A DNA stretch of 41,185 bases from Bacteroidales bacterium (GTDB lineage: Bacteria; Bacteroidota; Bacteroidia; Bacteroidales; UBA7960), in assembly GCA_007123065.1 (NCBI GenBank), contig SKSI01000099.1, positions 1 through 41,185 on the forward strand, written 5' to 3'. The notes under the pieces are model-generated. The model did not search any database and was not told where the DNA came from. It saw nothing but the letters and a program-made list of their open reading frames with translations. Shown here piece by piece: positions 11,927 through 28,305 of this stretch (position 1 is the first letter of the stretch; each line of letters starts with the position of its first letter). Position numbers and translations under genes: made by a program.

Positions 11927-12337
11927 TCACGTACGTGCAACAAAATCCTCCAGGGTCTGCTCCTGGAAATATCGCTTGAATTGCATAGTTACATCAGTAA
12001 CCAGTCCATTCATCAGACATTTGTTAAACGGACATATCTGACGATCCAAAGGACATTCGGGTACATCTATTTTACCTTCAATGGCTTCATAAAGCTCTAA
12101 AATGCTGATCTGATCAGGCGGTTTGCTAAGTATAAAGCCACCACTCGGACCTCTCACTGATTTTAAAAAATTATGTTTTACCAGCTGTTGAAGAACTTTA
12201 GCCAGGTGGTTCTTTGATGCACCCATCTCACTGGCGATGCTGTTCACGTTCACGTGAGTTTTAGACTTGGATATCAACACCATGGCATGCAATGCCAGTG
12301 ATGCTGCTTCCGAAAAATGAACAAGTTTAGCCATCAT
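11927..12337 (-). CDS. Rrf2 family transcriptional regulator with three C-terminal Cys
   Basis: HLAKVLQQL, SVRGPSGGF.L, LYEAIEG and CPLDRQICPFNKC (Cx6Cx4C). Confidence 0.92.
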   Translation of the reverse strand: MMAKLVHFSEAASLALHAMVLISKSKTHVNVNSIASEMGASKNHLAKVLQQLVKHNFLKSVRGPSGGFILSKPPDQISILELYEAIEGKIDVPECPLDRQICPFNKCLMNGLVTDVTMQFKRYFQEQTLEDFVART

Positions 12338-12896: not shown

Positions 12897-14324
12897 TTAA
12901 AAGTACAAATCCCTTTTACCGGTTTTAATTTGCTCAATTTTCTTTTTAAGGCTTTCGACCCTTTGATCTTTAGCCAAATCGGTGAGTTTTTCGTTTATTA
13001 GGGCATATCCTTTTTCACGGGTATCCCCAGAAGCATAATCTTCAAGGTATTCAGCCATTGTAAGCAGCGCATTAGGCGTACAGTATCGTTTGATGAAACC
13101 CGGAACAGAGAACTCCATAAAATGCTCCCCCGTGCGTCCTAGACGATAACAAGCGGTACAGAAAGAGGGAATATAACCCTTGTTTATCAGTTCATCCATG
13201 ATCTCTGACAATGAACGGTTGTCATTAATCTGAAACTGTCCCTTGCTTAAATCCTGAGTTTCTCTTTTGCCTTTTGAATAACCACCAAGCTCCAGGTTTG
13301 TACCACCGTCGATCTGAGATACACCAAATCTGAGGATCTGGTCCCTCGTATGCGCAGGTTCACGAGCGGTAAGGATCATGCCTGTATAAGGAACAGCGAG
13401 ACGCAAAACAGAAACCAGACGGATGAATTCTTCATCAGAAACCAGGTGGTCTTTTGAAATATCAAGTGATAGAGCGTTCTGGATCCTGGGAAAAGAGATT
13501 GTATGAGGACCTACGTTATAGACTGCTTCAAAGTGGTTCACGTGCCTGACCAGCCCCATCACCTCAAATCGCCAGTCGTACAAACCAAACAAGGCACCGA
13601 TTCCCACATCATCTATCCCCGCCTCCTGGGCTCTGTCAAGCGATGTAAGGCGCCATTCATAATTGCGTTTCAGACCTCCCAGATGCACTTTCTCATAGGT
13701 TGGCTTATGATAGGTTTCCTGGAAAATCTGGTATGTACCGATGCCTGCATCCTTCACCTTCCGGAAGCCAGGAATGTCAAAAGGAGCGGCATTGATATTT
13801 ACCCTCCTGATCTCTCCGTTGCCATGCTTCACCCCATAAACTACCCTGACCGTTTCTGCAATGAAGTCAGCCGAATACTTGGGATGTTCTCCATAAACCA
13901 GAATGAGACGCTTGTGCCCCTGATCAACAAGAGCAGTGGCTTCTACCTTTAATTCATCGGTATTCAGGGTGATTCTTTTGACATCTTTGTTGGTAGACCT
14001 GAAACCACAGTACTGACAGTTATTGGTACACAAATCACCCACATAAAGCGGGGCAAACAACACAATGCGTTCTCCGTAAACCCGTTCCTTGAGAGTTCTT
14101 GCGCCATCCTTGATCTCCTCTATCAGCTCCGGATCAGTAGCATTCAGCAACACCGCAGTTTCTTCCAATGAAAGCCTTTTTTTATCCAATGAAGCCTGGA
14201 TCACTTCGCGCACCCTGATCTTGTCAGCCTTTACATGATTGATGTAATCCCAGATCTCATCAGCATCAATAAACGGCTGCATCCTTTTATCCGGAATACG
14301 ATATTTTTCAGGAGAATAAATCAT
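12897..14324 (-). CDS. hydG: [FeFe]-hydrogenase H-cluster radical SAM maturase HydG
   Basis: LFAPLY, CTNNCQYC (radical SAM), FQETYH, GPHTISFPR and the auxiliary-cluster motif PSFCTACYR...CTPNA. Confidence 0.96.
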   Translation of the reverse strand: MIYSPEKYRIPDKRMQPFIDADEIWDYINHVKADKIRVREVIQASLDKKRLSLEETAVLLNATDPELIEEIKDGARTLKERVYGERIVLFAPLYVGDLCTNNCQYCGFRSTNKDVKRITLNTDELKVEATALVDQGHKRLILVYGEHPKYSADFIAETVRVVYGVKHGNGEIRRVNINAAPFDIPGFRKVKDAGIGTYQIFQETYHKPTYEKVHLGGLKRNYEWRLTSLDRAQEAGIDDVGIGALFGLYDWRFEVMGLVRHVNHFEAVYNVGPHTISFPRIQNALSLDISKDHLVSDEEFIRLVSVLRLAVPYTGMILTAREPAHTRDQILRFGVSQIDGGTNLELGGYSKGKRETQDLSKGQFQINDNRSLSEIMDELINKGYIPSFCTACYRLGRTGEHFMEFSVPGFIKRYCTPNALLTMAEYLEDYASGDTREKGYALINEKLTDLAKDQRVESLKKKIEQIKTGKRDLYF

Positions 14325-14350
14325 TATTCAGGTATTTGCTATATTTTTTA

Positions 14351-14358
14351 CAAAATTA
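14351..14358 (-). promoter_or_regulatory. Internal Bacteroidetes -7 promoter element (TAATTTTG) for hydG-TM1266x2-rrf2-zupT
   Basis: Matches TAnnTTTG, 27 bp upstream of the hydG ATG. Confidence 0.55.
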
Positions 14359-14369
14359 GCAAAACTTTC

Positions 14370-15158
14370 TCACACATGCACCTTTAATCCGTCAAAAGCG
14401 AGAAATACGTTCTCAGGCAAACCGGCCTGTATACTTTCGTGCAGGCCCATGAAATGGCTCAGATGGGTAATGTAGGCAGTCTCCGGTTTTAGTTCCCTGA
14501 TGATATCCAAAGCTTCATCCAATGAGAAATGGGAAATATGGGGAGATTTTCTCAGTGCGTTGATAACCAAAACCCTGGAGCCGATAATTTTTTTCTTTTC
14601 CTCATCAGAGATAAAGCTGGCATCTGTGATGTAGGTAAAGTCATTCATGCGAAACCCGAAAACGGGTAATTTATGGTGCAGCACTTCAATGGGAGTGAAT
14701 TCAAAGCCATTAATTCCAAAGGGTTTATTTTCAATCACATGAAATTGCAATTGAGGCGCGCCAAAAAATCTCTTTTCCGTAAGGATATAAGGAAACTCTT
14801 TATTGACGGAGTCGATCACTTTTTCAGTGGCATAAATGTCAACAGTTTTATTCAGCACATAATTGAAGGCACGCACATCGTCGAGACCTGCAATATGGTC
14901 GCGGTGCCCGTGTGTAAACAGAATGGCTGATATATCCTCAACCTTTTCCCGAATCATTTGATAACGGAAATCGGGTCCGCAATCAATCACGAAATTGTCG
15001 TCCCCGACCTGAATCATCACCGAAGTACGCAGTCGCTGATCACGCGCATCTGCACTCTTACAAACCTTGCAGTCGCAAGCCACAACCGGCACGCCGGTTG
15101 AAGTTCCGGTGCCGAGAAAGGTGATGGTGATCGGTTTCTTATTTGTCATGGGATCCAT
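14370..15158 (-). CDS. Metallo-beta-lactamase fold hydrolase, PhnP-like
   Basis: FLGTGTSTGVP, DCGPDFR, THGHRDHIAGLDD, YITD and THLSH. Confidence 0.9.
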   Translation of the reverse strand: MDPMTNKKPITITFLGTGTSTGVPVVACDCKVCKSADARDQRLRTSVMIQVGDDNFVIDCGPDFRYQMIREKVEDISAILFTHGHRDHIAGLDDVRAFNYVLNKTVDIYATEKVIDSVNKEFPYILTEKRFFGAPQLQFHVIENKPFGINGFEFTPIEVLHHKLPVFGFRMNDFTYITDASFISDEEKKKIIGSRVLVINALRKSPHISHFSLDEALDIIRELKPETAYITHLSHFMGLHESIQAGLPENVFLAFDGLKVHV

Positions 15159-15169
15159 GTGCTCATTGT

Positions 15170-16090
15170 TTAATAAATCAGGTCTTCAACCATTTCGCGT
15201 GCTTCTTCCAAAACCTGGTCTGCCATCACTCCATTACCAAATGGGTTGCCAGACCAAACCAGTTTATAAAGATATAGTGTGCCTTCCTTTCCGTGGGGAT
15301 CGACCTTGTCATAAATCAACTGGTTCAGCAGTTTTTTGTTACCGAGATCGTCTTGCAGAATAAAACTCATGGCTTTCAAACAGCTGCCATCAACAAAAAG
15401 ATTGCCGGCATAGATGCCTGTAGGGGGAATCAGCTTCTCTACGGTAGTAATTTCAATACCCACGGGCGGTTCTCTGAAGCTGTCGTGGATTTGTCCATCG
15501 GCATACAGCGAGCCTTTTACAATGTATTGGTGATCAAGATATGCATTGGCCCTTTGTATGTTGCCATCCTTGAGTGCTTTTCGGATTTTTGTTGAGCTTA
15601 CTGTTTCATTCTCGATCAGTTTCAATGGTATCTCCTCCACCTTAAAGTCCATATCCCGGCTTAAACCGTGCAAATAGGAATAATCTCCTTCTCTGGCGTG
15701 ACCAAAATGGTGGTTATGTCCAACTACCACAACTTTTGCCATAAGATCACCAATCAGCATAGTTGTTACAAAATCGCGGGAGCTGGTTTTGCTGAATTCA
15801 AGCGTAAAAGGGATGATTATCAGGTTATCCAGCCCCGCTTTACGCAGTAGCTCAATTTTTTCATCTTGCGAATTAATCAATTTCAGATCTTTTTGATCAG
15901 GGTAGAGAACTTTGCGTGGATGCGGATCAAAGGTGATCAAAACCGACTCGCCATCAATTTCATCAGCAATTTCATTCAAACGGTTGATGATCAATTTATG
16001 TCCGATATGCACCCCGTCAAAGGAGCCGGTTGTAACAACTGCATTTTTAATCTTACCGGCAGCTTCGGCAGTGTGATGGTATACATTCAT
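15170..16090 (-). CDS. FAD synthetase (FMN adenylyltransferase), RibF-like, with a degenerate riboflavin-kinase domain
   Basis: N-terminal GSFDGVHIGH, TFDPHPR, VVGHNHHFG and VSSTKIR are intact. The C-terminal half lacks GRxxGFPTAN and the catalytic Glu motif, retaining only LIPPTGIYA. Confidence 0.85.
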   Translation of the reverse strand: MNVYHHTAEAAGKIKNAVVTTGSFDGVHIGHKLIINRLNEIADEIDGESVLITFDPHPRKVLYPDQKDLKLINSQDEKIELLRKAGLDNLIIIPFTLEFSKTSSRDFVTTMLIGDLMAKVVVVGHNHHFGHAREGDYSYLHGLSRDMDFKVEEIPLKLIENETVSSTKIRKALKDGNIQRANAYLDHQYIVKGSLYADGQIHDSFREPPVGIEITTVEKLIPPTGIYAGNLFVDGSCLKAMSFILQDDLGNKKLLNQLIYDKVDPHGKEGTLYLYKLVWSGNPFGNGVMADQVLEEAREMVEDLIY

Positions 16091-16119
16091 AATTGAAATT
16101 TTTTCTTTTTCGCAGGATT

Positions 16120-16752
16120 CTATTTTGATTTCACAAGGTATGCCAGTTTTTCAAGGGAGGTGATGATATCATATTCTTCGAGATAAATATCATCCGGGAC
16201 AGTCAGCGGAACAGATGTATAATTTAAAAGGCCTTTGATGCCGCAATCCAAAAGGTGTTTTGCTACTTCATGAGCAGCTTCAGGTGAAACAGTCAGTATG
16301 GCAATGGGAGATTGTTCTTCTTCAATTACGGATTGAACGTCTTTGATGTGATGGCAAGGGATCCCTGCTATGATCCGGTCTGTTTTTTGCGGGTCATTAT
16401 CAAAAGCTGCTACAATGCTCAGCTTATCCCGCTTACCGGAAAAATAGCTTGTAATGGCTCTTCCAAGGTTTCCCATCCCGACGATGATTACTTTTTGCCC
16501 ATCACTGCTGTCTATAATTTTCCCTATCAGGGCAACAAGATCTTTAATGACATAGCCTTTGCTCTGACTTCCTGAATAACCGATCAACATCAGATCCCGC
16601 CGAACCTGAACCGGCGTAAGGTTCATCATTCGGGCAAGCTCGTGCGAATAAATATTGGTTTTTCCTTCCCGTATGCTGTTGTATAAAATCCGCCGGTATT
16701 GACTAAGGCGTTCAATTGTTTTACCTGGAAGCTCTGACAATTTTTCTTTCAT
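16120..16752 (-). CDS. rex: Redox-sensing transcriptional repressor Rex
   Basis: TIERLSQY, SHELA, QVRRDL, Rossmann motif IVGMGNLGRA and AAFD. Confidence 0.93.
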   Translation of the reverse strand: MKEKLSELPGKTIERLSQYRRILYNSIREGKTNIYSHELARMMNLTPVQVRRDLMLIGYSGSQSKGYVIKDLVALIGKIIDSSDGQKVIIVGMGNLGRAITSYFSGKRDKLSIVAAFDNDPQKTDRIIAGIPCHHIKDVQSVIEEEQSPIAILTVSPEAAHEVAKHLLDCGIKGLLNYTSVPLTVPDDIYLEEYDIITSLEKLAYLVKSK

Positions 16753-16778
16753 ATTTATGATTTGAAATGGTTGCTATT

Positions 16779-17900
16779 TTATGTAATTGGAAACTGAACG
16801 GTAAAACAGCTACCCTCGTTGGGCATGCTATCAACATTGATGCTCGCACCATATAACTCAAGAAGCTTTTTAACGATGGAAAGGCCCAGTCCGGTACCCG
16901 TGATGTGTTTGGTCTGTTCACTTTTAATGCGAACAAAATCTTCAAACAAAGATTTAATATCCTCTTCTTCCATACCGATTCCTGTATCCTGAACCTCTAT
17001 CAGGGTGCCGGAATTCTTACGTTTGAGGTTCACATCTACCCTGCCGCCTTGTTTGTTGTATTTAATAGCATTTGATATCAGATTATTCATAATGATCTCC
17101 ATCTCCTGCCTGTCAGCTTCCATAGATACCTTTTCGCCACAGTTCAGATAGACATCCACATCTTTTTGTATTGCCAGGGGTTGAAATGCATCGATGCATT
17201 GTTGTGCCAGTTCACAAAGCAACACCGGTTCCATCTTTCTTTTTTTCTTTCCTGATTCAATGCGTGTGATATCAAGCAAGTCAAGGATCAGGTTACGCAT
17301 ACCCTGAAGTCGGTGCATCGAGCGGTCGATGATATCCTGGTATTCGTGCAGGGAATCTCCCATTTTGCGATCCTGCATGAGCTGTAAATAACCTTCAACG
17401 GCATTCAATGGTGCCTTCAGTTCGTGAGAGAGTACCGACAGAAACTGAAAACGCACCTGACGTCCTTCCACATTTAGTTTCTGTGTCATCCTGCGCAGAA
17501 AAAGCTGCTTGGTGATCGTTTCGATGGAAGCCCTCAGTTCTTTGGGTGTAAAAGGCTTAGGGACAAAATCGTACGCACCCTGTTTGGTTGCTTTTACAGC
17601 CAGTTCGAGTGATGCATAAGAAGTGATCATCACCACAACAACATCCAGGTTGTTGTTATTAATAAACTCCAAAACATCAATACCTTGAATACCAGGAAGT
17701 TTATTATCCAGCAAAATGATGTCCAGATCGTTTTTTCGAAGAATTTCAAGAGCCTCCTCTCCTGTTTCAACGGCCTGGACATCAAACCCGAAATCTTCAT
17801 CCATAAAGGGATAGCTTACAGAATAGTTATCAAGTATCCTGCAAACTCCCATACGGATACCGGGTTCATCATCCACCACGAGGAGCTTTAGCTTTTCCAT
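16779..17900 (-). CDS. Hybrid receiver-histidine kinase (REC-HisKA-HATPase), cytoplasmic
   Basis: VVDDE, ILLD, MITS and KPF in REC; SHELKAPL H-box; NLISNAIKY, DTGIG and GTGLGL. Confidence 0.92.
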   Translation of the reverse strand: MEKLKLLVVDDEPGIRMGVCRILDNYSVSYPFMDEDFGFDVQAVETGEEALEILRKNDLDIILLDNKLPGIQGIDVLEFINNNNLDVVVVMITSYASLELAVKATKQGAYDFVPKPFTPKELRASIETITKQLFLRRMTQKLNVEGRQVRFQFLSVLSHELKAPLNAVEGYLQLMQDRKMGDSLHEYQDIIDRSMHRLQGMRNLILDLLDITRIESGKKKRKMEPVLLCELAQQCIDAFQPLAIQKDVDVYLNCGEKVSMEADRQEMEIIMNNLISNAIKYNKQGGRVDVNLKRKNSGTLIEVQDTGIGMEEEDIKSLFEDFVRIKSEQTKHITGTGLGLSIVKKLLELYGASINVDSMPNEGSCFTVQFPIT

Positions 17901-17903
17901 GGA

Positions 17904-18302
17904 TCAGATTTTTAACAATTTATGGATCTCTTTTTGCAACTGGTCGTTACGTATCCCTTTATCAAGAAACAGTTCCGCCTTAATCCAGTCGCGCTCCTCC
18001 TCGGTGGTGACGTCAAACAACATACCCGTTTCTGCAGTAACGGCAGAAGCAATGATAACAGGAACATCCGGGTATTTATTCTTAATAATATGGCAAAGAA
18101 TAAAGCCGGTATCTTGCTGTTCCATCATCAGATCCAGAATGGCCAGATCCGGTTTTGTCTTTTCGATGATGGTTTCTGCTTCTTTTAGGGTATCGGCAGT
18201 TATCACTTCAAAACCCATATCCTCAATGGCTATTTTAAGCTGAAACAGATAATCGGTATCATCATCAACGATCAAAATCATTTTTTTTTCTTTTTTCAAC
18301 AT
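17904..18302 (-). CDS. Single-domain response regulator (receiver only)
   Basis: LIVDDD, LAILDLMME (phospho-Asp) and FLDK; no output domain. Confidence 0.9.
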   Translation of the reverse strand: MLKKEKKMILIVDDDTDYLFQLKIAIEDMGFEVITADTLKEAETIIEKTKPDLAILDLMMEQQDTGFILCHIIKNKYPDVPVIIASAVTAETGMLFDVTTEEERDWIKAELFLDKGIRNDQLQKEIHKLLKI

Positions 18303-18314
18303 ACCTGGTGGCTT

Positions 18315-20345
18315 TTATTGCTGTTTTTCTTCTTTTGATTTTCGGGGTAGTTTCAGAATGAAAGTAGTTCCGGTCGCACCATCATTGGGATCAGCATTGG
18401 ATTCCACTTTAATGCTGCCGCTGTGCATCTTGATGATGCCATAAATGATCGGTAGCCCGAGTCCTGTACCTTTACCATTTTCTTTTGTTGTGAAAAATGG
18501 TTCAAACATCCTTTCCAGATTCTCTTTGGGAATGCCAATTCCGGTATCGCAAATGCGAATTTCCATGGCACCTTCCGTTAAAATTTCTCCAACCTTAATA
18601 GTCAACGTGCCCCCATCGGGCATGGCATCAATTGCATTTTTAAACAGATTGGAGAATACCTGTACCATTTGATCCTGGTCGCATTCCAGCACCGGATCCT
18701 GACTGTTGATCTCGACATTAAGCCCAACGTTTTCAGGAATTACAAAGGTCTTTAATCCATTGTTGATTAGTTTCTTAACATTCACTTCTTCGATACTTAC
18801 CTTACTCTTGCGTGCAAAGTTCAGAAGGCCTCCCACAATTTTCTTGCACCTGTCTGCCTGTTCCACAATCATCTTTAGATCCCTGTAGAGCGGGGAGGAT
18901 GGATCCATTTCATCAAGCAAAATATGGCTGTACATGATCACAACTCCCAAAGGGTTGTTAACCTCATGAGCAATACCAGCAGCAAGTTGCCCCATTGATG
19001 CAAGTTTTTCGCTTTGTTTCAGGGCGGCCTGTGTAGACGCCAGCTTTAGATTTGACACATCCAGCTCCTTGATATATTCGTGCAACTGATCAATCGTGTA
19101 GGGCAAACACATTTCCGATTCCGCCAGGCCTTGCAGAATCGCTATGGCGTGCTCGTAGCAAGTATCATAACCACAAGCGCCGCAATTAAGCTCATCCTCC
19201 TGTTCTCTTTTTCCCAATCTGGCCAACACCTCTCTGATCTCTTCATCGCGCGGAGGGCTTGGAAAACGCTGATCACTGGCCTTAAAACCGCGTCCGAGTT
19301 CGAGCTCCAGATAAGTAGACAAATCCTTTTGCCATTGTTCCAGGTCAATCCTGTCATATTTCCGCTTGGCAAAATTCGATATGTTTTTTCGCTTGTAGAA
19401 GAACTGACGGCTATGGCTCATTCCCGGACCATTGATACAGCCGTTGCAGCATAGCAGGTCAAACATCTTGGCCTCCAGGTAACCTTCTTCAAATTCACGC
19501 AACACTTCTATGATGTCGCGGCGCCCTTCTGCCACAATGATGTCCCCTTTCACAAAATCCTCCTCCAAATCGACAGTCTGCAACATCCCACCACTTATTG
19601 GAAAAATTGCACCTTTCCCTGCCAATGGGGGATCAAACTCTGAAGGTTCCACGTTGTGTTCGGTAAGTTTCTTTTCAGCGAACATCCGTCTAAGCTCAAC
19701 GAAGGAGATTACTTCATCAATCAGGCCTTCAAATTGCTCTTCTGCCGCTTCCACTTTCTTTGCGATACAGGGACCGATAAAAACCACCCGGGTATTCTGA
19801 CCATATTTTTGCTTAACCACCTTAGCTGTAGCGATCATTGGAGACACAACCGGAACGAGTGAATCAATGATCTGTGGATGGTGTTTTTCTACGTAGCTTA
19901 CAATGGCCGGACAGCTTGTTGAGATCAGCGGACGGTTTGGTTTTGACTCAAGCAGTTCCTTGTATCTGTTAGCGATCAGCTCGGCACCAAAGGCCACTTC
20001 AGTAACATAATCAAAGCCCAGAGCACGTATCATGCCGACAAAATGCCTGTAATCGTTAATATCGGTAAATTCACCGGCTATGCTTGGGGCAATAATAGCA
20101 GCTACCGGCGCATGTTCGTGCAAAAGCTTTTTTACTTTATCAATTGAAAATGCAAACATTTTGGCATCACGACTGCACACGCGAATGCAGTTTCCACAAG
20201 CGATGCACCTGGAAGGAATGATCTCCGCCTGGCCGTTCGCGATCTTGATCGCTTTTGCGGGACACTCACGCACGCAGGTATAGCATACCTTGCAACGGTC
20301 CTTAACCGTATAGATGATCTCTGCATTTTTGTGACTTTCGGCCAT
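18315..20345 (-). CDS. Group C (sensory) [FeFe]-hydrogenase fused to a histidine kinase
   Basis: 2x[4Fe-4S] ([22 protein letters not shown]); H-cluster P1 STSCPA, P2 [10 protein letters not shown]3 [10 protein letters not shown]; FeS domain CGACGYDTC...C; His[14 protein letters not shown]; HATPase [19 protein letters not shown] and GTGLGL. Confidence 0.9.
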
Positions 20346-20359
20346 AAGGTTTCAATCGT

Positions 20360-22087
20360 TTACTTTAATACTGTCCGCTCTTTAAAATCAGTTTTGATCC
20401 AGTTCCGGGTAATTTCCTGATCAGGCTTAAAGCGATTGTCTTTAAAAAAAGCTGCTGTTGCTGGATTATCCTGTGGATATTGGAAAGCACAATTCTTTTC
20501 CAACTCCGCACACAGCTTCTTTCTGGCAATAACCTGTTCAAAGCCACGGCTGACAGGTTGTCCGCCACCGCCGACACAGCCATTCAAACAAGCCATCACT
20601 TCAACATAATGAATATCTTTGCGTCCATCCAGTAAAAGCTGTTGCATGTATTCTTCTGCATCACTGATAGAACTGACCCATGCAAAACCAATCTGGTGGT
20701 CACCAATCGTTACTTTGGTTTCCTTCCTCCCATAGATATTTTTCGGCGTATTAAACTTGAATGTATCCATTTTGCCACCCAACATCCGGTAAGTCTCCCT
20801 TGCTACCGCTTCTGCTTTTCCTCCTGAATAACCGAGCTTCCAGGCTGCTGCAGAAGATTGGACGTAAGGGTCGTCAAGTGCTTCACCTTCTGTATTTCGG
20901 ATGTCGATACCGGAGCTGCGCAACAGTTGAAGCAACTCACGTACGGTTAAAACAGCATCTGTTTCGGAGACCCCTTTATGGGTGTTTTCTTCCCTGGATG
21001 CTTCATACTTTTTCCCAACGCAAGGCATCACTGCAACGTTAAAAATCTGCTCCATCGGGATATCAGCTTCCGCGGCAAACTGCGTTTTAATTAACGTACT
21101 CAGAATTTGCTGCGGCGATTTGGTCTTAGACAAAGAGGTTATCCATTCAGGACGAAACTCCTCTACATAGCGCACCCATGCCGGGCAGCAAGATGACAAC
21201 AGTGGCAGGGAGTTTTCTTTATTCTGAATATGCGCAATCAGATTTCCGGCCTCCTCGCTGATGTTGATATCAGAGGCCACACCCAGATGAAATACCTTAT
21301 CGGCGCCACATCGTTTCAAAGCACCTGCGATTATATCCATCGGCTGGTCCTTTACTTTCAGACCCATCGCTTCAGCAACGGAACCGGCAACGGATGGACT
21401 GATCATAAACATTACCCTCACATCTTTTTTATCAAGTGCCGCATATACCTTTTCCTGATGCGAAATATCAGTCAGCGCCGCAGTCGGACACACCTGAATA
21501 CACTGTCCGCAATGTATGCAGCTGGAGATATTCAACCCTTTGTTAAATGCGCTGTTAACCATAGTCTGGTTGCCTCTTGAAATAAAATCAATGGCGGTTA
21601 CCAGTTGTACCTCTTCGCAGATACGGACACAGCGACTGCAAAGAACGCATTTGGCCGGGTCGCGCGCCACGCTGGTACTGGAATAATCAGGATAGTGTGT
21701 GTTTTTCTTACCAAAATACTTGCGTTCTTTCACATTCATCATCTCTGCCAGCCACTGCAGTTCACAATTTCCGTTGCGCTGGCAATAGAGGCAATCGTCG
21801 GGATGATTTGACAAGAGCAATTCGACCAAAGACTTGCGTGCCTGCATAACGCGCCGGGAATTGGTCTTGACTTTCATCCCCTCCTCCACAGGAAAAGAAC
21901 AGGATGTTACCAGATCACGCTTCCCTTCTACTTCCACGGCACACAACCTGCAAGCTCCTGTTGGAGAGAACCGGTTCATATGACAAAGCGTAGGGATCCG
22001 GATGCCGTGGCCACGCAGGGCAGCCAGCAGCGTTTCACCCTCTCTGACGGTTATGTGTTTATTGTTAACTTCGATCTGAAATTCCAT
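20360..22087 (-). CDS. hydA: [FeFe]-hydrogenase HydA/HndD-type subunit (M3 architecture), divergent
   Basis: [2Fe-2S] PTLCH...GACRLC...SC; His-ligated cluster HPDDCLYCQRNGNC; 2x[4Fe-4S]; P1 SSCCPAW, P2 MPCVGKKYE and P3 EVMACLNGCVGGGGQP. Confidence 0.88.
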   Translation of the reverse strand: MEFQIEVNNKHITVREGETLLAALRGHGIRIPTLCHMNRFSPTGACRLCAVEVEGKRDLVTSCSFPVEEGMKVKTNSRRVMQARKSLVELLLSNHPDDCLYCQRNGNCELQWLAEMMNVKERKYFGKKNTHYPDYSSTSVARDPAKCVLCSRCVRICEEVQLVTAIDFISRGNQTMVNSAFNKGLNISSCIHCGQCIQVCPTAALTDISHQEKVYAALDKKDVRVMFMISPSVAGSVAEAMGLKVKDQPMDIIAGALKRCGADKVFHLGVASDINISEEAGNLIAHIQNKENSLPLLSSCCPAWVRYVEEFRPEWITSLSKTKSPQQILSTLIKTQFAAEADIPMEQIFNVAVMPCVGKKYEASREENTHKGVSETDAVLTVRELLQLLRSSGIDIRNTEGEALDDPYVQSSAAAWKLGYSGGKAEAVARETYRMLGGKMDTFKFNTPKNIYGRKETKVTIGDHQIGFAWVSSISDAEEYMQQLLLDGRKDIHYVEVMACLNGCVGGGGQPVSRGFEQVIARKKLCAELEKNCAFQYPQDNPATAAFFKDNRFKPDQEITRNWIKTDFKERTVLK

Positions 22088-22105: not shown

Positions 22106-24058
22106 CTATTTTATCGTGACGGCATTAAACTTGCAAACATCGTAGCAAGAACCACAGGCAATACATTTCTCCCTGACAATAAAGTGTGGATACCTGGGCG
22201 AGCCTATAATGGCATCTACGGGACATTTTTTAAGGCAGGCCGTACATCCCGTACATGCTTCGACATCAATTACAAAGATTCTTAAGTCTGTACAGTGGTT
22301 CGCCGGACATTTTCGTTCGAAAATATGCGAATCAAATTCATTTTTGAAAAACTTCAGGGTATTCAGAATCGCCATCGGCGATGACTTGCCCAATGCACAT
22401 AAGGAAGTATCACGGATCACTCCGGCAAGGCTTTTAAGCTGCATTACACCTTTAAAACGCTCCAGTGTCTGGAAGGACTGACCCTCTTCCGGTCGTCGCG
22501 TTGCTTGCTCCATGACCTCAAGCATACGTGCGGTGCCTTCCCTGCAGGGAATGCATTTCCCGCAACTCTCTTTTTTAAAGAATGCCGTAAAAAACTTGGC
22601 CATATCCACCATACACACTTCTTCATCAAGCACGACAAAGGCACCGCTGCCGAGCGCAGCACCAATTTGCTTCAAGGCATCAAAATCTATCAGTGTGTCA
22701 AGGGTTTCTTCCACAATGTAACTACCGCTGTTGATGCCCAGCACAATGGCTTTAAATGCCTTTTCATCCTTAAGTCCGCCTCCCACGAGGTCAATAACTT
22801 CCCTGAAACTGGCCCCCATAGGTACTTCGACCGTTCCATAATATTTTATGTTACCGGACAATGTAAACAACTTAGTCCCTTTACTGGTGTCAGTTCCCAG
22901 ATTCAAAAACCATTCCGGACCGTTTTTCAGTATGAGCGGGACATTGAAAAGGGTTTCCACGTTATTGACAATCGTAGGCTTATCCCATAACCCTCTTTCA
23001 GCAGGGAATGGAGGCTTGGAGGACGGCATGGCCCTTTTTCCCTCAATGCTGCTGTTAAGGGCTGTTTCTTCACCACAAACAAAAGCCCTTGCACCTTCTT
23101 TTACAACCACATCAATATTTACACCTGACTCGAATATGTGATGTCCGATGATACCGTATTCACGGGCTTGATCGATTGCCTCATTGAGTCTTTTGATAGC
23201 AAGTTTGAATTCTTTTCTGATAAAAATGAATGCTTTGCTGGCGCCGATGGCATACGCTGCGATCAAAACTGCTTCAATGAGCCTGTGGGGATTGCTTTCA
23301 ATGATCGCTCTGTTCATATAGCTACCCGGATCACTTTCTACAGCATTACAAACCAAATATTTCTGATCGCTGCCATACTGAAGTGCCGTGGCCCACTTTT
23401 TCCCGGCCAAATAACCACCTCCGCCACGACCTGCCAGTCTGCTTTGTTCAATTAACCCGCAAACCTGTTCGGGTGTGAGCCGTGATATCGTATCTACAAA
23501 GGCCTGGTAACCGCCTTTGGCAATACAGGCGGCCACAGATACCGGGTCTATTATTCCACAATGCTCAAGCAGGATACGATGCTGTGAGGAAAAGAAAGGA
23601 TGCTCCTCAACGGCATCTACACCCTCCCACTCCTGAAAAATTGGATTCTTATACTGACCGATTACCTCTGCCTCCGGGAGGTTGCCATTTAACACCTCAT
23701 CCAGCAGCAATTGAACTTTATCAGCCGTTACATTGGAAAATGAGATCCGTGATTTTCCCGGCAGCTGGACATCCACAATCGGTTCAGCTGCACACAAACC
23801 AACGCAACCACCTTCAACAAGTTCTGCATCGAACTCATGATCAACAAGGTAATTTCTGATCGCCTCAAAGCTTTTCTCTGCTCCGGCAATACGCCCGCAG
23901 CTGGCCATCCCGACATAAATGAGAGGCTTATGAACCCGTTCACCGGCAATATAAGACAACGGCTTTTTTAATGAAGGATCATTATGCCGTTGCGGATTCA
24001 GCAACACCTTGCTAATTAAAAATTCACGGACATCCCGGGTATGATCTAATGTCATCAT
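22106..24058 (-). CDS. hydB: HydB/HndC (NuoF-like) flavin subunit with an N-terminal thioredoxin-like Fe-S domain, divergent
   Basis: GMASCG...GCVGLC; GRGGGG; AFVCGEETAL; NNVETL; ESCGKCIPCREG; H...C...C motif; C-terminal 2x[4Fe-4S]. Confidence 0.88.
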   Translation of the reverse strand: MMTLDHTRDVREFLISKVLLNPQRHNDPSLKKPLSYIAGERVHKPLIYVGMASCGRIAGAEKSFEAIRNYLVDHEFDAELVEGGCVGLCAAEPIVDVQLPGKSRISFSNVTADKVQLLLDEVLNGNLPEAEVIGQYKNPIFQEWEGVDAVEEHPFFSSQHRILLEHCGIIDPVSVAACIAKGGYQAFVDTISRLTPEQVCGLIEQSRLAGRGGGGYLAGKKWATALQYGSDQKYLVCNAVESDPGSYMNRAIIESNPHRLIEAVLIAAYAIGASKAFIFIRKEFKLAIKRLNEAIDQAREYGIIGHHIFESGVNIDVVVKEGARAFVCGEETALNSSIEGKRAMPSSKPPFPAERGLWDKPTIVNNVETLFNVPLILKNGPEWFLNLGTDTSKGTKLFTLSGNIKYYGTVEVPMGASFREVIDLVGGGLKDEKAFKAIVLGINSGSYIVEETLDTLIDFDALKQIGAALGSGAFVVLDEEVCMVDMAKFFTAFFKKESCGKCIPCREGTARMLEVMEQATRRPEEGQSFQTLERFKGVMQLKSLAGVIRDTSLCALGKSSPMAILNTLKFFKNEFDSHIFERKCPANHCTDLRIFVIDVEACTGCTACLKKCPVDAIIGSPRYPHFIVREKCIACGSCYDVCKFNAVTIK

Positions 24059-24525
24059 GCTGAATTTTCTTTTTCCCTGAGTGATTTGATGAGTTCTTTG
24101 AGGCTTTGAAGATTCAGGTTGGTATGATACATATCATTCACCTCAATAAGGGGCGCAAGGCCGCAGGCACCAATGCAACTTACCACCTCCAGGCTAAAAA
24201 TTCCCTGTTTATCACATTCACCATCAGAAATTTTTAAAATGCGCTCAAGCTCTTTGAGCAAAGTGCCAGCACCGGCAACATGACAAGCGGTTCCGTGGCA
24301 TAACCGGATGTGGTATTTCCCAACAGGACCAAAACGGAAATTGTCATAAAACGTAGCTACCCCGTATATTTTGTTAACACTGATCCTGAGATAAGAACCT
24401 ACAGATGATATCATCTCTTCAGATAAAAAACCATTTTTATCCTGAATAGCCTGCAGCAAAGGAATCATATCCTCCCGCCGTCGATTCGGAAACTTTTCAA
24501 AAACATCTTCAAGTGAAATGCTCAT
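24055..24525 (-). CDS. hydC: HydC/HndA (NuoE-like) [2Fe-2S] subunit
   Basis: IPLLQAIQ, YGVATFY, CHGTACH and CIGACGLAP; stop overlaps the hydB start (ATGA). Confidence 0.92.
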   Translation of the reverse strand: MSISLEDVFEKFPNRRREDMIPLLQAIQDKNGFLSEEMISSVGSYLRISVNKIYGVATFYDNFRFGPVGKYHIRLCHGTACHVAGAGTLLKELERILKISDGECDKQGIFSLEVVSCIGACGLAPLIEVNDMYHTNLNLQSLKELIKSLREKENSA

Positions 24526-24780: not shown

Positions 24781-24820
24781 TTATCAGATATCAACTAATG
24801 CGAACAAATTGGGTTAAATT

Positions 24821-25078
24821 ATGAGCCAGGGGAAGGCGGGAGAAATTGTAATATGCATGGGAAGCAGTTGTTTCTCCAGGGGAAATAAAATAGCTCTGGG
24901 TATCATACGGAGTTATTTAAGAGAGAATAGCCTCGAGGCTGAGATCACATTTCGCGGAGCACATTGTCTGGGTATTTGCGAACAGGGTCCTGTTTTGATA
25001 CTAAACGAAAAGCAGCACAAAAAGGTTATGCCGGATGACATTCCCGGAATGCTGGATGATTTTTTTGCAGAAAACTGA
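24821..25078 (+). CDS. HfsA-like thioredoxin-fold [2Fe-2S] ferredoxin
   Basis: ICMGSSCFSRGN and HCLGICEQGP; typical first gene of hfs/hydS operons. Confidence 0.85.
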   Translation: MSQGKAGEIVICMGSSCFSRGNKIALGIIRSYLRENSLEAEITFRGAHCLGICEQGPVLILNEKQHKKVMPDDIPGMLDDFFAEN

Positions 25079-25153
25079 AGTAGAAATAACACCCTTCTTC
25101 GTTTTGCCAGTCTGCATCATCAAAAACCCAAAATTGAATAACCTGTCCAACAA

Positions 25154-27007
25154 ATGGAAACAATACGTATAGATCATGACCGTTGCAATAAATCGTATGC
25201 CTGCATCCGGGCGTGTCCGGTCAAAGCGATAACTACCCGGAACAAGGATGGCATGCCGGTTGTTAACCACGCGCGCTGTATAGGTTGCGGCAGCTGCCTT
25301 AGTGTTTGTGCCGTGGATGCCGTTTCACATTACAGCGATGTGGATACTTGCATCAACCTGCTTAAATCTGATGATCAAGTTGCGGCCATCGTAGATCCGA
25401 CGATCAGCGGAGAATTTCCGGACATCACCGATTACAGGAAGTTTGTGGAGATGATCCGACGACTTGGTTTCGACTATGTCAATGAAGTATCCTTTGGTGT
25501 CGATCTGGTGGCGTCCAAATACCATGACCTTCTTTCAAACTTTAAAGGGAAACACTACCTTTTGGCCAATTGCCCCACCCTGGTCTCCTATATTGAAAAG
25601 TTTTATCCGGAACTGACAGAAAACCTTGCGCCAATTGAAATTCCAATGACTGCAACGGCAAAAGTCGTGCGTGCTGCTTATGGCAAAAAATTAAAAGTGG
25701 TTTTTTTCGGCCCCTGCCTGTCTGCCAAACACGATGCACAATTGATTGATGGAGATGGGAAGGTGGATGCTGTGCTGACGTTCAGCGAGCTGCGGGCATT
25801 GTTCCGAAAGTTTGAAATCAAAGAGTCTAAAGTGGAATATTCCGATTTTGACCCTCCTATTGGATATTTGGGATCGATGTACCCCATTAGCAACGGCATC
25901 ATTTATGCAGCCGATATTGATGAGTCTGTGCTCAATGGAAAAGTGATCACTGTAGAATCGAAAAATAATTTTATGGATGCTGTTGAAGAATTCAGCAAGC
26001 ATCCGGAAAAATTGAAAAAACATTTCAATATTTTTTACCATTCAGGCTGCCTGACCGGGCCGGGTACAACTGATAGAAGCAATCAGTTTTTACGCCGTGC
26101 CCTGGTTACCAAATACGTGCATAAGCGTTTAAAAAAATTTGATAAGAAACAATGGCAGCTGGATATTGAAAAATACGGCAAACTGGATTTAAATCGCAGC
26201 TACATCAAAGATGACCAGCGCCTTCCTGAACCTGATCCTGATAGTGTTGAAGAGATCCTCAAAAGCCTTGGGAAACGTCTTGAAGAATCGGCCTCCTGCA
26301 ACGCATGTGGATTCAGAAGCTGCAACGACTTTGCCAGGTCAATAAGCCAGGGACTATCGAAACCTGAAATGTGCTTGAATTACTCTCTCTCCAGCAAGCA
26401 GGAATACATCAAAACACTGAAGAACAATAATGACAAGCTTCGAAAACAGCTTGATAAAACAGTTGAAAAGGATAAGGAACTGCATGAAGCACACCAGAAG
26501 ATCAAACAACGGTCGGAAACTACTTCCGCACTGCTTAAAAACCTGCCATCAGCTGCAGTAATTGTGGATGAAAAGCTCAAAGTGATCGAGTCAAACGAAA
26601 GCTTTATAAAAGTGCTTGGAGAAGATGCCGCAATGATCAATGAAGTGATTCCCGGCCTGATGGGTGCCGACCTGAAGACGCTGCTCCCCTACAATATATA
26701 CAATCTCTTTAACTATGTTCTTGAAAAAGGGGAGAATATCGTTGGAAAGGATGTAATGCACGAGGACAGGCTGCTGAATGTCAGCATCTACTCATTAAAG
26801 CCAAACAAGATCGTTGGTGGTGTTTTCAGAGATATGTATGTAGCCGAAGTGCGCCAGGAAGAAATCATCAACAGGGTTGGAGAAGTTATTGATGAAAATT
26901 TGAAGATGGTGCAGCAAATCGCCTTTTCTCTCGGGGAAGGAGCCAGCAATACAGAGAGAATGTTGAATTCAATCATCGAAACCTACAAAAAGACAGGAAA
27001 AAAATAG
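25154..27007 (+). CDS. PAS-linked group C sensory [FeFe]-hydrogenase homologue (HydS/HfsB-like) with degenerate ligands
   Basis: Ferredoxin motifs CNKSYACIRACP and CIGCGSCLSVC; P1 ANCPT; P2 GPCLSAKHD; P3 region NIFYHSGCLTGPG; FeS domain CNACGFRSC...C; coiled coil; PAS-like LPSAAVIVD...N.SF; C-terminal VQQIAFSLGEGA. Confidence 0.85.
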   Translation: METIRIDHDRCNKSYACIRACPVKAITTRNKDGMPVVNHARCIGCGSCLSVCAVDAVSHYSDVDTCINLLKSDDQVAAIVDPTISGEFPDITDYRKFVEMIRRLGFDYVNEVSFGVDLVASKYHDLLSNFKGKHYLLANCPTLVSYIEKFYPELTENLAPIEIPMTATAKVVRAAYGKKLKVVFFGPCLSAKHDAQLIDGDGKVDAVLTFSELRALFRKFEIKESKVEYSDFDPPIGYLGSMYPISNGIIYAADIDESVLNGKVITVESKNNFMDAVEEFSKHPEKLKKHFNIFYHSGCLTGPGTTDRSNQFLRRALVTKYVHKRLKKFDKKQWQLDIEKYGKLDLNRSYIKDDQRLPEPDPDSVEEILKSLGKRLEESASCNACGFRSCNDFARSISQGLSKPEMCLNYSLSSKQEYIKTLKNNNDKLRKQLDKTVEKDKELHEAHQKIKQRSETTSALLKNLPSAAVIVDEKLKVIESNESFIKVLGEDAAMINEVIPGLMGADLKTLLPYNIYNLFNYVLEKGENIVGKDVMHEDRLLNVSIYSLKPNKIVGGVFRDMYVAEVRQEEIINRVGEVIDENLKMVQQIAFSLGEGASNTERMLNSIIETYKKTGKK

Positions 27008-27036
27008 ATTCCTGCAAACCAACAAAGAGGCCTGAT

Positions 27037-28221
27037 ATGTCAGACAGATTCTATATTGAAGTCGGTTCAGCGCAGCGCAGCCATGTTGGCGAACGCATCT
27101 GCGGTGACGTGTTCCTTTCTGAAAAAGTGAAAGAGGAAGGGCGCACCGTGGTTGTATTATCGGATGGAATGGGACACGGAGTAAAAGCAAACCTCCTGGC
27201 AACCCTAACAGCAAAAATGTCACTGAATTTCACAAAAGAACACAAAGACGCACAAAAGATCGCAGAGATCATTATGAATACCCTGCCCGTATGCAGCGAA
27301 CGAAAAATCAGCTATGCAACCTTCTCTATTATAGATATTGAGAAAGACGGACAAACCACCATCCTGAACTATGATAATCCGGACCCGATTCATATTCGCG
27401 ACAATGAACTGTTAAAGCCGGAATGGCACAAAATGACGGTTGAAGGAGATGATCATACCAATAAAGAGATTACCGCGTGCACGTTTAAACTGCAGAAGGA
27501 AGATCGCATTGTAATCATGTCTGACGGGATTACCCAGTCGGGTCTGGGGAAAGGCCGTTATCTGCTAGGCTGGGGACTGGAAAATGTGGAGTATATGTTG
27601 CTCAGCCAGATTAAGGAGCAACCTGATATTTCAGCTGCAAAACTGTCGTCACTTCTGGTAAACAAGGCACACGCCAACGATGAATACCAGGCCAAGGATG
27701 ATACGAGCGTGGTTGTAGTATACTGCAGGGAACCCAGGCGCTTGCTGATCTCTTCTGGTCCACCCTTTGAGAAGGAAAAAGACGGGGAACTTGCAAATAT
27801 GGTTCGCGACTTTGAAGGGAAAAAAATAATTTGTGGCGGCACCACTGCTGACATCATCTCCCGCGAGCTGGATATCCGGATCGATGACTCGCTCGACTTT
27901 GACGACCCGGACCTCCCCCCCATATCACACATGAAAGGTATTGATCTTGTAACCGAAGGAATCCTGACTTTAAGCAAAACAGCCAATTTACTTGAACAAT
28001 ACGGGCCTGACTCAGATCCCGGCAAAGGGCCTGCAGACCTGATTGTACGTCAGATTATGGAAAGTGATGAGATCCATTTTATTGCGGGAACCGCCATCAA
28101 TGTAGCACACCAGGACCCAAATCTTCCTGTTGAGCTCGAGATCCGAAGATCTGTCATAAAAAAGATCGCCAATATTCTGGAACAGAAGTTTCTTAAAGAA
28201 GTAAGCCTGCGCTTCATCTGA
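27037..28221 (+). CDS. SpoIIE/PP2C-family Ser/Thr phosphatase (HfsC-like)
   Basis: CGDVF, VLSDGMGHG, YATF, MSDGITQSG, KDDTS and C-terminal IICGGTTA domain. Confidence 0.9.
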   Translation: MSDRFYIEVGSAQRSHVGERICGDVFLSEKVKEEGRTVVVLSDGMGHGVKANLLATLTAKMSLNFTKEHKDAQKIAEIIMNTLPVCSERKISYATFSIIDIEKDGQTTILNYDNPDPIHIRDNELLKPEWHKMTVEGDDHTNKEITACTFKLQKEDRIVIMSDGITQSGLGKGRYLLGWGLENVEYMLLSQIKEQPDISAAKLSSLLVNKAHANDEYQAKDDTSVVVVYCREPRRLLISSGPPFEKEKDGELANMVRDFEGKKIICGGTTADIISRELDIRIDDSLDFDDPDLPPISHMKGIDLVTEGILTLSKTANLLEQYGPDSDPGKGPADLIVRQIMESDEIHFIAGTAINVAHQDPNLPVELEIRRSVIKKIANILEQKFLKEVSLRFI

Positions 28222-28305
28222 TTATTGATTATCAGCCGGCTTCAATCAATCGACATAAAATACTGTTGAAAAAGCTATCTTTGACCTGAAATTTTTATCA
28301 GAAGA

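Follow-up and report, generated by a model that had tools for sequence, protein, structure and literature searches.

Does a protein built like a hydrogen sensor still depend on H2 once part of its active-site ligation is gone? The question is raised by a locus in a 41,185-nucleotide stretch of a Bacteroidales bacterium (hereafter the window, i.e. the whole of the DNA analysed; contig SKSI01000099.1, assembly GCA_007123065.1), where positions 25154..27007 of the plus strand hold an intact open reading frame (ORF) of 617 amino acids for a HydS/HfsB-like protein, here called the target. An initial annotation, made from the letters alone, had read it as a possible pseudo-hydrogenase sensor missing one H-cluster cysteine and one ferredoxin cysteine, and had suggested either a His-ligated or [3Fe-4S] variant, or a protein that lacks the diiron site and responds to redox state, O2, or iron instead of H2. 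We class the target as a hydrogenase-derived iron-sulfur (Fe-S) sensor, a variant of the known HydS type. On balance, we lean slightly towards an iron-sulfur-only pseudo-hydrogenase that lacks the diiron subsite and reports redox state to a phosphatase; as far as its residues tell, the target probably senses cellular redox state through ordinary Fe-S clusters, not hydrogen.

Departures from a hydrogenase begin in the ferredoxin domain. The first motif, CNKSYACIRACP (residues 11-22; 25184..25219, plus strand), has the form CxxSxxCxxxCP, with Ser14 (codon TCG, 25193-25195) standing for the second Cys, and the second motif, CIGCGSCLSVCA (residues 42-53; 25277..25312, plus strand), has all four Cys, so the domain does not hold two complete [4Fe-4S] motifs. 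In a phmmer alignment to CpI, a hydrogenase with solved structures, Ser14 falls in the C150 column. We take C147, C150, C153, and C200 of CpI to be the ligands of FS4B, which would place Ser14 at the cluster farther from the H-site. Its position in the motif is the one classically substituted in [3Fe-4S] or Asp-ligated ferredoxin clusters.

In the H-domain, the same alignment puts Asn139 at the column of the proton-relay residue C299 and Cys140 at the C300 ligand column (P1; 25568..25573, plus strand). P2 (25715..25735, plus strand) reads FFGPCLSAKHD and carries Cys188 (C355), Ala191 (K358; codon 25724-25726), Lys192 (K359), and Asp194 (E361), with Gly186 in the M353 column. Asp81 (25394..25396, plus strand) occupies the column of A230, presumably the equivalent of A94 in CrHydA1; the adjoining P231 is kept as Pro82, and the S232 column holds Thr83. 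In CrHydA1, A94 is described as contacting the proximal cyanide (CN) ligand, and K228, the equivalent of K358, as extremely well conserved, with K228 variants prevented from H-cluster assembly (PMC9516953).

P3 (26033..26050, plus strand) lies outside the CpI alignment, which ends at target residue 253, and was placed by family register. The motif NIFYHSGCLTGPG is coded TAC CAT TCA GGC TGC (26036-26050). Relatives at 39-56% identity read FYCEGC, gapless against FYHSGC in the target, and kinase-linked sensory types read L[FC]C[EN]GC. P3 in the target's subfamily is therefore CxxC, not CxxxC, with FYCEGC in the Cys-complete members, and this register places His296 (codon 26039-26041), not Tyr295, at the C499 ligand column; Phe294, Tyr295, and Cys299 then correspond to M497, A498, and the bridging position C503. 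The first P3 ligand, previously given as Tyr or His, is thus His296 alone, Tyr295 belonging to the A498 column. Otherwise, the letters and codons that the initial annotation wrote for P3, CNKSYAC, and GPCLSAKHD are those of the 617-residue frame, and its account of codon distances is correct (two bases separate CAT, and likewise TCG, from TGY, and one base separates TAC from TGC). The target has three of the four H-cluster Cys (CpI C300, C355, C499, and C503; His296 stands at C499), lacks the CN-fixing residues (K358 and the A230/P231/S232 stretch, of which only P231 is kept), and is without two complete ferredoxin motifs, and for these reasons we do not file it as a hydrogenase.

These states are shared by the closest homologues, taken as the best 120 of 2958 matches from a word-indexed search (64-100% identical, mostly labelled Bacteroidales metagenome-assembled genomes). 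Among these, 116 have an N-terminus, and the remaining 4 are without one. At the ferredoxin column, every member with an N-terminus has Ser or Thr (113 and 3, respectively). The C499 column holds H in 42 of the 120, D in 43, N in 32, S in 2, and C in 1 (H40, D41, and N32 in the 116 full-length rows), while Cys140, Cys188, and Cys299 are Cys in 120/120, as are the four Cys of the second ferredoxin motif. At the K358 column we find A in 108, S in 7, V in 3, and T in 2. Across the full-length rows, Asp81 and Cys140 are present in 116/116 and Asn139 in 114/116; Asp81, Asn139, Gly186, Ser190, and Phe294 are invariant or nearly so, and C499 is the most variable of the pocket columns. Mean column entropy in these rows falls from 1.32 bits in the linker through 1.18 in the ferredoxin domain and 0.94 in the H-domain to 0.61 in the PAS domain and 0.39 in the C-terminal helices—i.e. 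the last two are the most conserved parts of the protein.

A search for a compensating Cys gave exactly 14 conserved Cys columns for the clade, with none extra. Cys66, considered as an alternative ligand, is outside these columns; it is Cys in under 30% of the clade and in 4 of the 130 orthologues described below, and was rejected. As such, both ways in which the initial annotation expected its reading to fail can be set aside, as Cys is found in close orthologues at 0/116 for the ferredoxin site and 1/120 for C499, and no conserved column offers a substitute ligand for a normal H-cluster. The changes it proposed as marks of a clade, Cys to His/Tyr and Cys to Ser, do define one: the group with Ser14 plus H, D, or N at C499 has a support of 1.00 (FastTree).

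Selection and independent sequence data speak against decay and assembly error. Among five clade members with DNA, synonymous differences per site (pS) are saturated at 0.76-0.86, and we therefore give pN/pS instead of a proper dN/dS; nonsynonymous differences (pN) are 0.05-0.23, and pN/pS in the H-domain is 0.05-0.26. The H-domain is under purifying selection and the gene is not decaying. In three studies (2012, 2019, and 2022), contigs built from DNA runs cover both the Ser14 and the His296 codon without a listed difference, which excludes an assembly error and agrees with the earlier judgement that a read error is unlikely. One RNA library (X7), which may contain DNA, also covers both codons without a listed difference, its contigs spanning most of the gene, and the identical protein is recorded on 6 contigs. 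The stretch 24800-28300 as a whole is found at 0.90-0.95 of sampled words in soda-lake, alkali-sediment, and salt-lake metagenome runs of the same three studies, and one 5258-base contig covers its full length, differing at 7 letters and by a single inserted base; the organism is therefore recurrent in alkaline saline sediments.

How far these losses extend was followed in 401 genomes of the window's order, 229 of which have a match at E ≤ 1e-30, together with an exhaustive search of 50% representatives. The resulting family set comprises 130 full-length orthologues from 128 genomes, 37-100% identical to the target; six partial matches (G303, G041, G291, G195, G357, and G142:C91) and one kinase-type match at 390 bits (L130) were kept out of it. 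Lys at the K358 column is found in 0/130 (A74, S21, N16, T8, and others including 2 Arg). All four H-cluster Cys are present in 92 orthologues, three in 26 (C499 column D12, N11, and H3), two in 2, and one or none in 10. The second ferredoxin Cys, at the Ser14 column, is replaced in 22/130, mostly by Ser. Accessory features are kept throughout: the second ferredoxin motif has its four Cys in 130/130, as does the C-terminal motif. In 120/130 loci, the next gene downstream, on the same strand, encodes a SpoIIE/PP2C-type phosphatase, and this holds for 7 of the 10 in which one or no H-site Cys is left; a small [2Fe-2S] ferredoxin is encoded next upstream on the same strand in 97/130. H-cluster ligands are dispensable in this PP2C-linked family, and the target belongs to it by the lack of Lys at K358, the CxxC-type P3, the downstream PP2C gene, and monophyly.

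In two subclades, at most one H-cluster Cys is left (loci L092, L094, L096-L098, L103-L105, and L109, plus L080). Their P1 reads NDP, P2 GP[DEL], and P3 YGNS or FYKE, and they keep full length and both accessory cluster sets. In three of these Cys-poor loci (L097, L104, and L105), the PP2C gene is also missing within the flank fetched.

We placed the losses on a FastTree phylogeny (178 rows, 410 columns), built after masking the scored columns and rooted on K358-bearing kinase-type and M2f-type sequences, and on a quick IQ-TREE of 134 rows, thinned from 140 at 90% identity; four fragments under 540 amino acids were dropped from the trees. The PP2C-linked family forms one group (FastTree branch support 0.89-1.00). 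K358 changes once on either tree, at the family base, and all 8 outgroup sensory types have Lys. The C499 column changes 11 times on FastTree and 9 times on IQ-TREE, and the ferredoxin Cys 10 and 8 times, respectively. C499 loss is recurrent within the family: forcing all 42 C499-less rows together, a group named after the tree was seen, costs 287 log-likelihood units, and a single clade of them is rejected (approximately unbiased test, p-AU 8e-07). Coupling of the ferredoxin and C499 losses was considered and rejected, as each occurs alone in many lineages. Specifically, the ferredoxin Cys is replaced in 12 orthologues whose four H-site Cys are all in place, and 18 orthologues down to three H-site Cys retain an intact ferredoxin motif. 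The His296 state is derived and nested among Asp and Asn bearers (FastTree), and the H, D, and N codons are one base apart from each other.

Given this nesting and the alternation of H, D, and N in the clade, the part of the earlier inference that proposed a specifically His-ligated cubane is not supported as it was put. The option of a redox sensor without diiron site fits best, because K358 is absent family-wide and relatives without any H-cluster Cys remain intact. The course of events that we envisage is that the determinant of distal CN binding, K358, was lost once at the base of the family, after which the H-cluster ligands would have become dispensable and were lost repeatedly, wholly in some lineages, with the accessory clusters, the PAS domain, and the phosphatase neighbour retained. 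The H-domain site would no longer house the diiron [2Fe]H subsite. That a cluster is still bound in the target we infer from the strong conservation of the three remaining Cys and the pocket in its clade; Cys140, Cys188, and Cys299 may hold either an ordinary cubane or one of the [3Fe-4S] type, with a variable polar residue at the fourth position (His296 in the target, Asp or Asn in its sisters), and the first ferredoxin cluster would likewise be down to three Cys at Ser14. Electrons from a low-potential pool could enter the Fe-S chain, with the 85-amino-acid [2Fe-2S] ferredoxin encoded upstream as the likely donor, and the SpoIIE/PP2C phosphatase would receive the redox or occupancy state by way of the C-terminal 4-Cys cluster, then the coiled coil, the PAS domain, and finally the C-terminal helices. 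Phosphatase output, together with a kinase-linked HydS paralogue and Rex, may then tune the divergent hydABC operon. A family that descended from a HydS-type sensor and no longer depends on H2 chemistry is the best-supported account of these data.

Several observations weigh against this account. All four H-cluster Cys are kept by the 92 orthologues counted above, and no clade member departs from Cys at the bridging position 299, which would be expected if a cluster, perhaps even a full H-cluster, still matters. Replacements of C499 are strongly biased to D, N, and H, and could supply the fourth ligand of a working altered H-cluster; all three residues are polar, and two of them are good ligands. 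The gene lies beside hydABC and HydG, and HydE and HydF are in the genome, so maturation is possible. Lys192 might substitute for K358; it is kept in 10/10 orthologues with one or no H-site Cys, the acidic residue at E361 also persists where every H-site Cys has been lost, and the conservation of both therefore appears structural and uninformative on CN binding. When the 31 three-Cys rows with D, N, H, or S are forced together, the cost is 97 units (p-AU 0.024), a weak rejection of a single origin that is suggestive in view of the group having been named after the tree was seen. Maturase co-occurrence, considered as a test for [2Fe]H, does not discriminate, as five maturase-less genomes of the order carry canonical-looking HydA. 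In the literature searched, we found no experiment on any member of the PP2C-linked family.

The same observations bear on what else the target could be. It may still be an H2 sensor, with a variant H-cluster whose cubane sits on three Cys plus His, Asp, or Asn and whose distal CN is held by Lys192 or other residues, a reading that we consider somewhat unlikely; a natural variant of this kind in which Cys299 bridges to a diiron subsite without K358 is, in this specific form, rather improbable. The three Cys present in 120/120, the D/N/H bias at the fourth position, purifying selection on the H-domain, and the presence of HydG, HydE, and HydF in a genome where the locus adjoins hydABC are all consistent with it, but assembly is prevented in K228 variants (PMC9516953) and 130/130 orthologues are without K358. 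Asp81 would also place a carboxylate at the proximal CN contact, Asn, a poor Fe ligand, fills the C499 column in 32/120, and relatives without H-site Cys share the architecture and the phosphatase neighbour. Should the variant cluster be real, the target's response to H2 would differ from that of the kinase-linked paralogue, and the natural variant would be a second, chemically distinct H2-sensing centre in Bacteroidales beside the canonical kinase-linked HydS. We regard as unlikely that the target is a sensor of O2, reactive species, nitric oxide (NO), or iron, in which labile three-Cys clusters at Ser14 and His296 would signal to the PAS domain and phosphatase by cluster loss or [4Fe-4S]/[3Fe-4S] conversion. 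Two clusters each one Cys short at positions of classical [3Fe-4S] or non-Cys substitution, the recurrence of both substitutions (8-10 changes for the ferredoxin Cys and 9-11 for C499), and an Rrf2-type regulator nearby (11927-12337) would suit such a role. The substitutions are uncoupled, however, no neighbouring gene points specifically to oxidative stress or to the control of iron uptake, and the conserved partners are ferredoxin and hydrogenase genes.

A further reading takes both the H-site and the first ferredoxin site to be without a functional cofactor, leaving the H-domain as a scaffold and sensing to the C-terminal 4-Cys cluster and a PAS ligand. The C-terminal four Cys persist in all 10 orthologues with one or no H-site Cys, within an architecture that keeps the PAS domain, and the PAS domain and C-terminal helices have the lowest entropy; even so, three H-site Cys in every clade member and near-invariant Asp81, Gly186, Ser190, and Phe294 are hard to square with an empty site, and we hold this reading to be very improbable. 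The C-terminal cluster of TamHydS is described as unresponsive to H2 (PMC13104023), which also stands against it and says little on other signals. Finally, an artefact or a gene in decay, whether by sequencing or assembly error or as a pseudogene in the making, is hardly credible. Although the window comes from an 81%-complete metagenome-assembled genome in 207 contigs, we found no support for an artefact; identical codons in three studies, states conserved in 116-120 homologues, an intact frame, and pN far below saturated pS refute it. Among these alternatives, the diiron-less redox sensor remains our preferred reading.

The domain layout of the target is that of sensory group C (HydS type): a two-cluster ferredoxin domain, the H-domain, a C-terminal 4-Cys motif, a coiled coil, a PAS domain, and C-terminal helices. 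Pfam detects two Fer4 motifs and Fe_hyd_lg_C (PF02906) at residues 75-302 (25376..26059, plus strand; E 2.5e-34), and an AlphaFold2 model of the full-length protein (mean predicted local distance difference test score, pLDDT, of 86.8) has CpI and the HydA subunit of HydABC as its best Foldseek matches (E 2e-19), i.e. the H-domain fold is present. The C-terminal Cx2Cx4Cx16C motif consists of Cys382, Cys385, Cys390, and Cys407 (26297..26374, plus strand), is invariant in the alignment examined, and is matched by the FeS family PF04060 at residues 382-407; this motif is the one named for the M2e/M2f subclasses (PMC8163306). The Pfam match to PAS is below the cut-off (E 0.014), and the PAS domain was therefore checked by fold search. 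A model of residues 455-617 (pLDDT 78.8) matches solved PAS domains of Aer2, CitA, PYP, NifL, and FixL (best E 7.5e-06), with a template modelling score of 0.77 to the CitA PAS domain, normalised to that domain. The PAS fold covers about residues 466-560 (26549..26833, plus strand). The intact frame, FeS domain, PAS domain, and C-terminal helix listed in the initial annotation are all borne out.

The C-terminal helices (residues 563-617; 26840..27004, plus strand) are the part of the target most conserved in the clade, with 31 of 55 columns invariant, yet they have the lowest model confidence (pLDDT 52-64), which suggests an interface formed only with a partner. A complex prediction for residues 455-617 with the PP2C protein, both given as alignments, scored 0.02 against a mark of 0.32 and speaks neither for nor against binding.

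Among described systems, TmHydS of Thermotoga maritima, a putative sensory group C protein of the M2f type, has the same order of two-cluster ferredoxin domain, H-domain, Cx2Cx4Cx16C motif, and PAS domain (PMC8163306 and PMC10055695). Like the target, it does not conserve the proton-relay Cys299 of CpI, has Gly at M353, and is encoded beside a trimeric HydABC (PMC8163306 and PMC10055695). By its description, TmHydS retains all ligating Cys together with the residues hydrogen-bonded to the [2Fe] ligands, and accepts a synthetic cofactor (PMC10055695). In the target, unlike TmHydS so described, P3 is spaced CxxC, and the C499 ligand, K358, and one ferredoxin Cys are missing; its identity to M2f-type representatives is ~29-34%. 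RaHydS of Ruminococcus albus is a case related to TmHydS. In Thermoanaerobacterium saccharolyticum, hfsC, the gene following hfsB in the hfsABCD operon, encodes a phosphatase. HfsB itself is a PAS-bearing hydrogenase-like protein encoded after the small hfsA gene, and genetic data give it a regulatory, not catalytic, role (PMC5707799). It comes from Firmicutes, unlike the target, and is likened here by description, in which we saw no report of missing ligands.

The kinase-linked HydS paralogue in the window (group C1 type) shares with the target the ferredoxin domain, the H-domain, the C-terminal 4-Cys core, and the CxxC form of P3, and is 34% identical over the shared part. Unlike the target, it has four H-cluster Cys, K358, and a full ferredoxin motif, and its output is a histidine kinase in place of PAS plus PP2C. 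Loss of such motifs has been touched on elsewhere: for group C1 [FeFe]-hydrogenases of Hydrogenedentota, a passing remark states that P1-P3 are hardly found and that H2 sensing is doubtful (PMC11406978). These proteins, set apart here by description, differ from the target in phylum and in belonging to a kinase-linked subgroup. Eukaryotic Nar1/NARFL (CIAO3) is an H-domain homologue with Fe-S clusters, without diiron subsite, and with a non-hydrogenase role; unlike the target, it is a cytosolic Fe-S assembly (CIA) factor without PAS or phosphatase link, and the likeness is one of principle. In the literature that we covered, that passing remark on another phylum (PMC11406978) was the one mention of such loss, with no residue-level or phylogenetic account and nothing on the Bacteroidales PP2C-linked family; HydS figures and supplementary alignments lay outside this search and may show K358 variation.

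Surveys count group C sensory hydrogenases by homology, and if this family lacks the diiron determinants, H2-sensing capacity is overstated; of the 401 genomes sampled in the order, at least 128 carry the family. It also bears on how HydS-type proteins signal. Since loss of the H-cluster ligands leaves the ferredoxin domain, C-terminal cluster, PAS domain, and PP2C module in place, the conserved signalling core can apparently work without H2 chemistry. Members with four, three, two, or no H-site Cys in one architecture form a natural series on what the H-domain contributes, and would be a bacterial counterpart to the eukaryotic hydrogenase-like Fe-S proteins.

The target is the middle gene of a plus-strand operon. 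Directly upstream is the 85-amino-acid thioredoxin-like [2Fe-2S] ferredoxin (24821..25078; PF01257, E 3.7e-09), and downstream is the 394-amino-acid SpoIIE/PP2C-type serine phosphatase (27037..28221, plus strand; PF07228), whose profile matches SpoIIE and RsbX phosphatases in the PDB. The C-terminal domain of the latter (residues about 229-394, ~165 residues; 27721-28218) has many invariant Gly, Pro, and Asp columns, and no Pfam family and no solved chain matched it.

Divergently transcribed from this operon, on the minus strand, are the genes of a trimeric group A [FeFe]-hydrogenase, hydC (24055-24525), hydB (22106-24058), and hydA (20360-22087), followed by the paralogue with a HydS-like H-domain fused to HisKA and HATPase (18315..20345), which holds the four Cys and K358 noted above. 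Downstream of the paralogue on the same strand lie a response regulator (17904-18302), a receiver-histidine kinase (16779-17900), a Rex-type redox repressor (16120-16752), an FAD synthetase and an MBL-fold protein (both within 12897..18302), and HydG (12897-14324); the Rrf2-family regulator at 11927-12337 (minus strand) is near HydG and the hydrogenase genes. HydE and HydF are on another contig of the same genome, and all three H-domain ORFs of the assembly are inside the window.

Across the order, HydG is absent among the matches in 15 of the 128 orthologue-bearing genomes. In the five maturase-less genomes (G276, G018, G097, G099, and G183; 95-100% complete, one closed), HydG was found in 0/5 even at E 1e-3, HydF reached at best 94 bits vs a cut-off of 325, and HydE 25 bits vs 254.6. 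They resemble the maturase-less archaea discussed in PMC11216029, and each carries 5-6 Fe_hyd_lg_C ORFs. For example, an island in one of them (G276:C1:3092500-3112499, locus L131) encodes three HydA, one with TSCCP, MPCxAKKYE, and MACPGGC and a second with MPCxAKKYE and MACPGGC, along with two HydB, two HydC, a 446-amino-acid group-D-like HydS, PP2C with an orthologue of the target, and a kinase-linked HydS.

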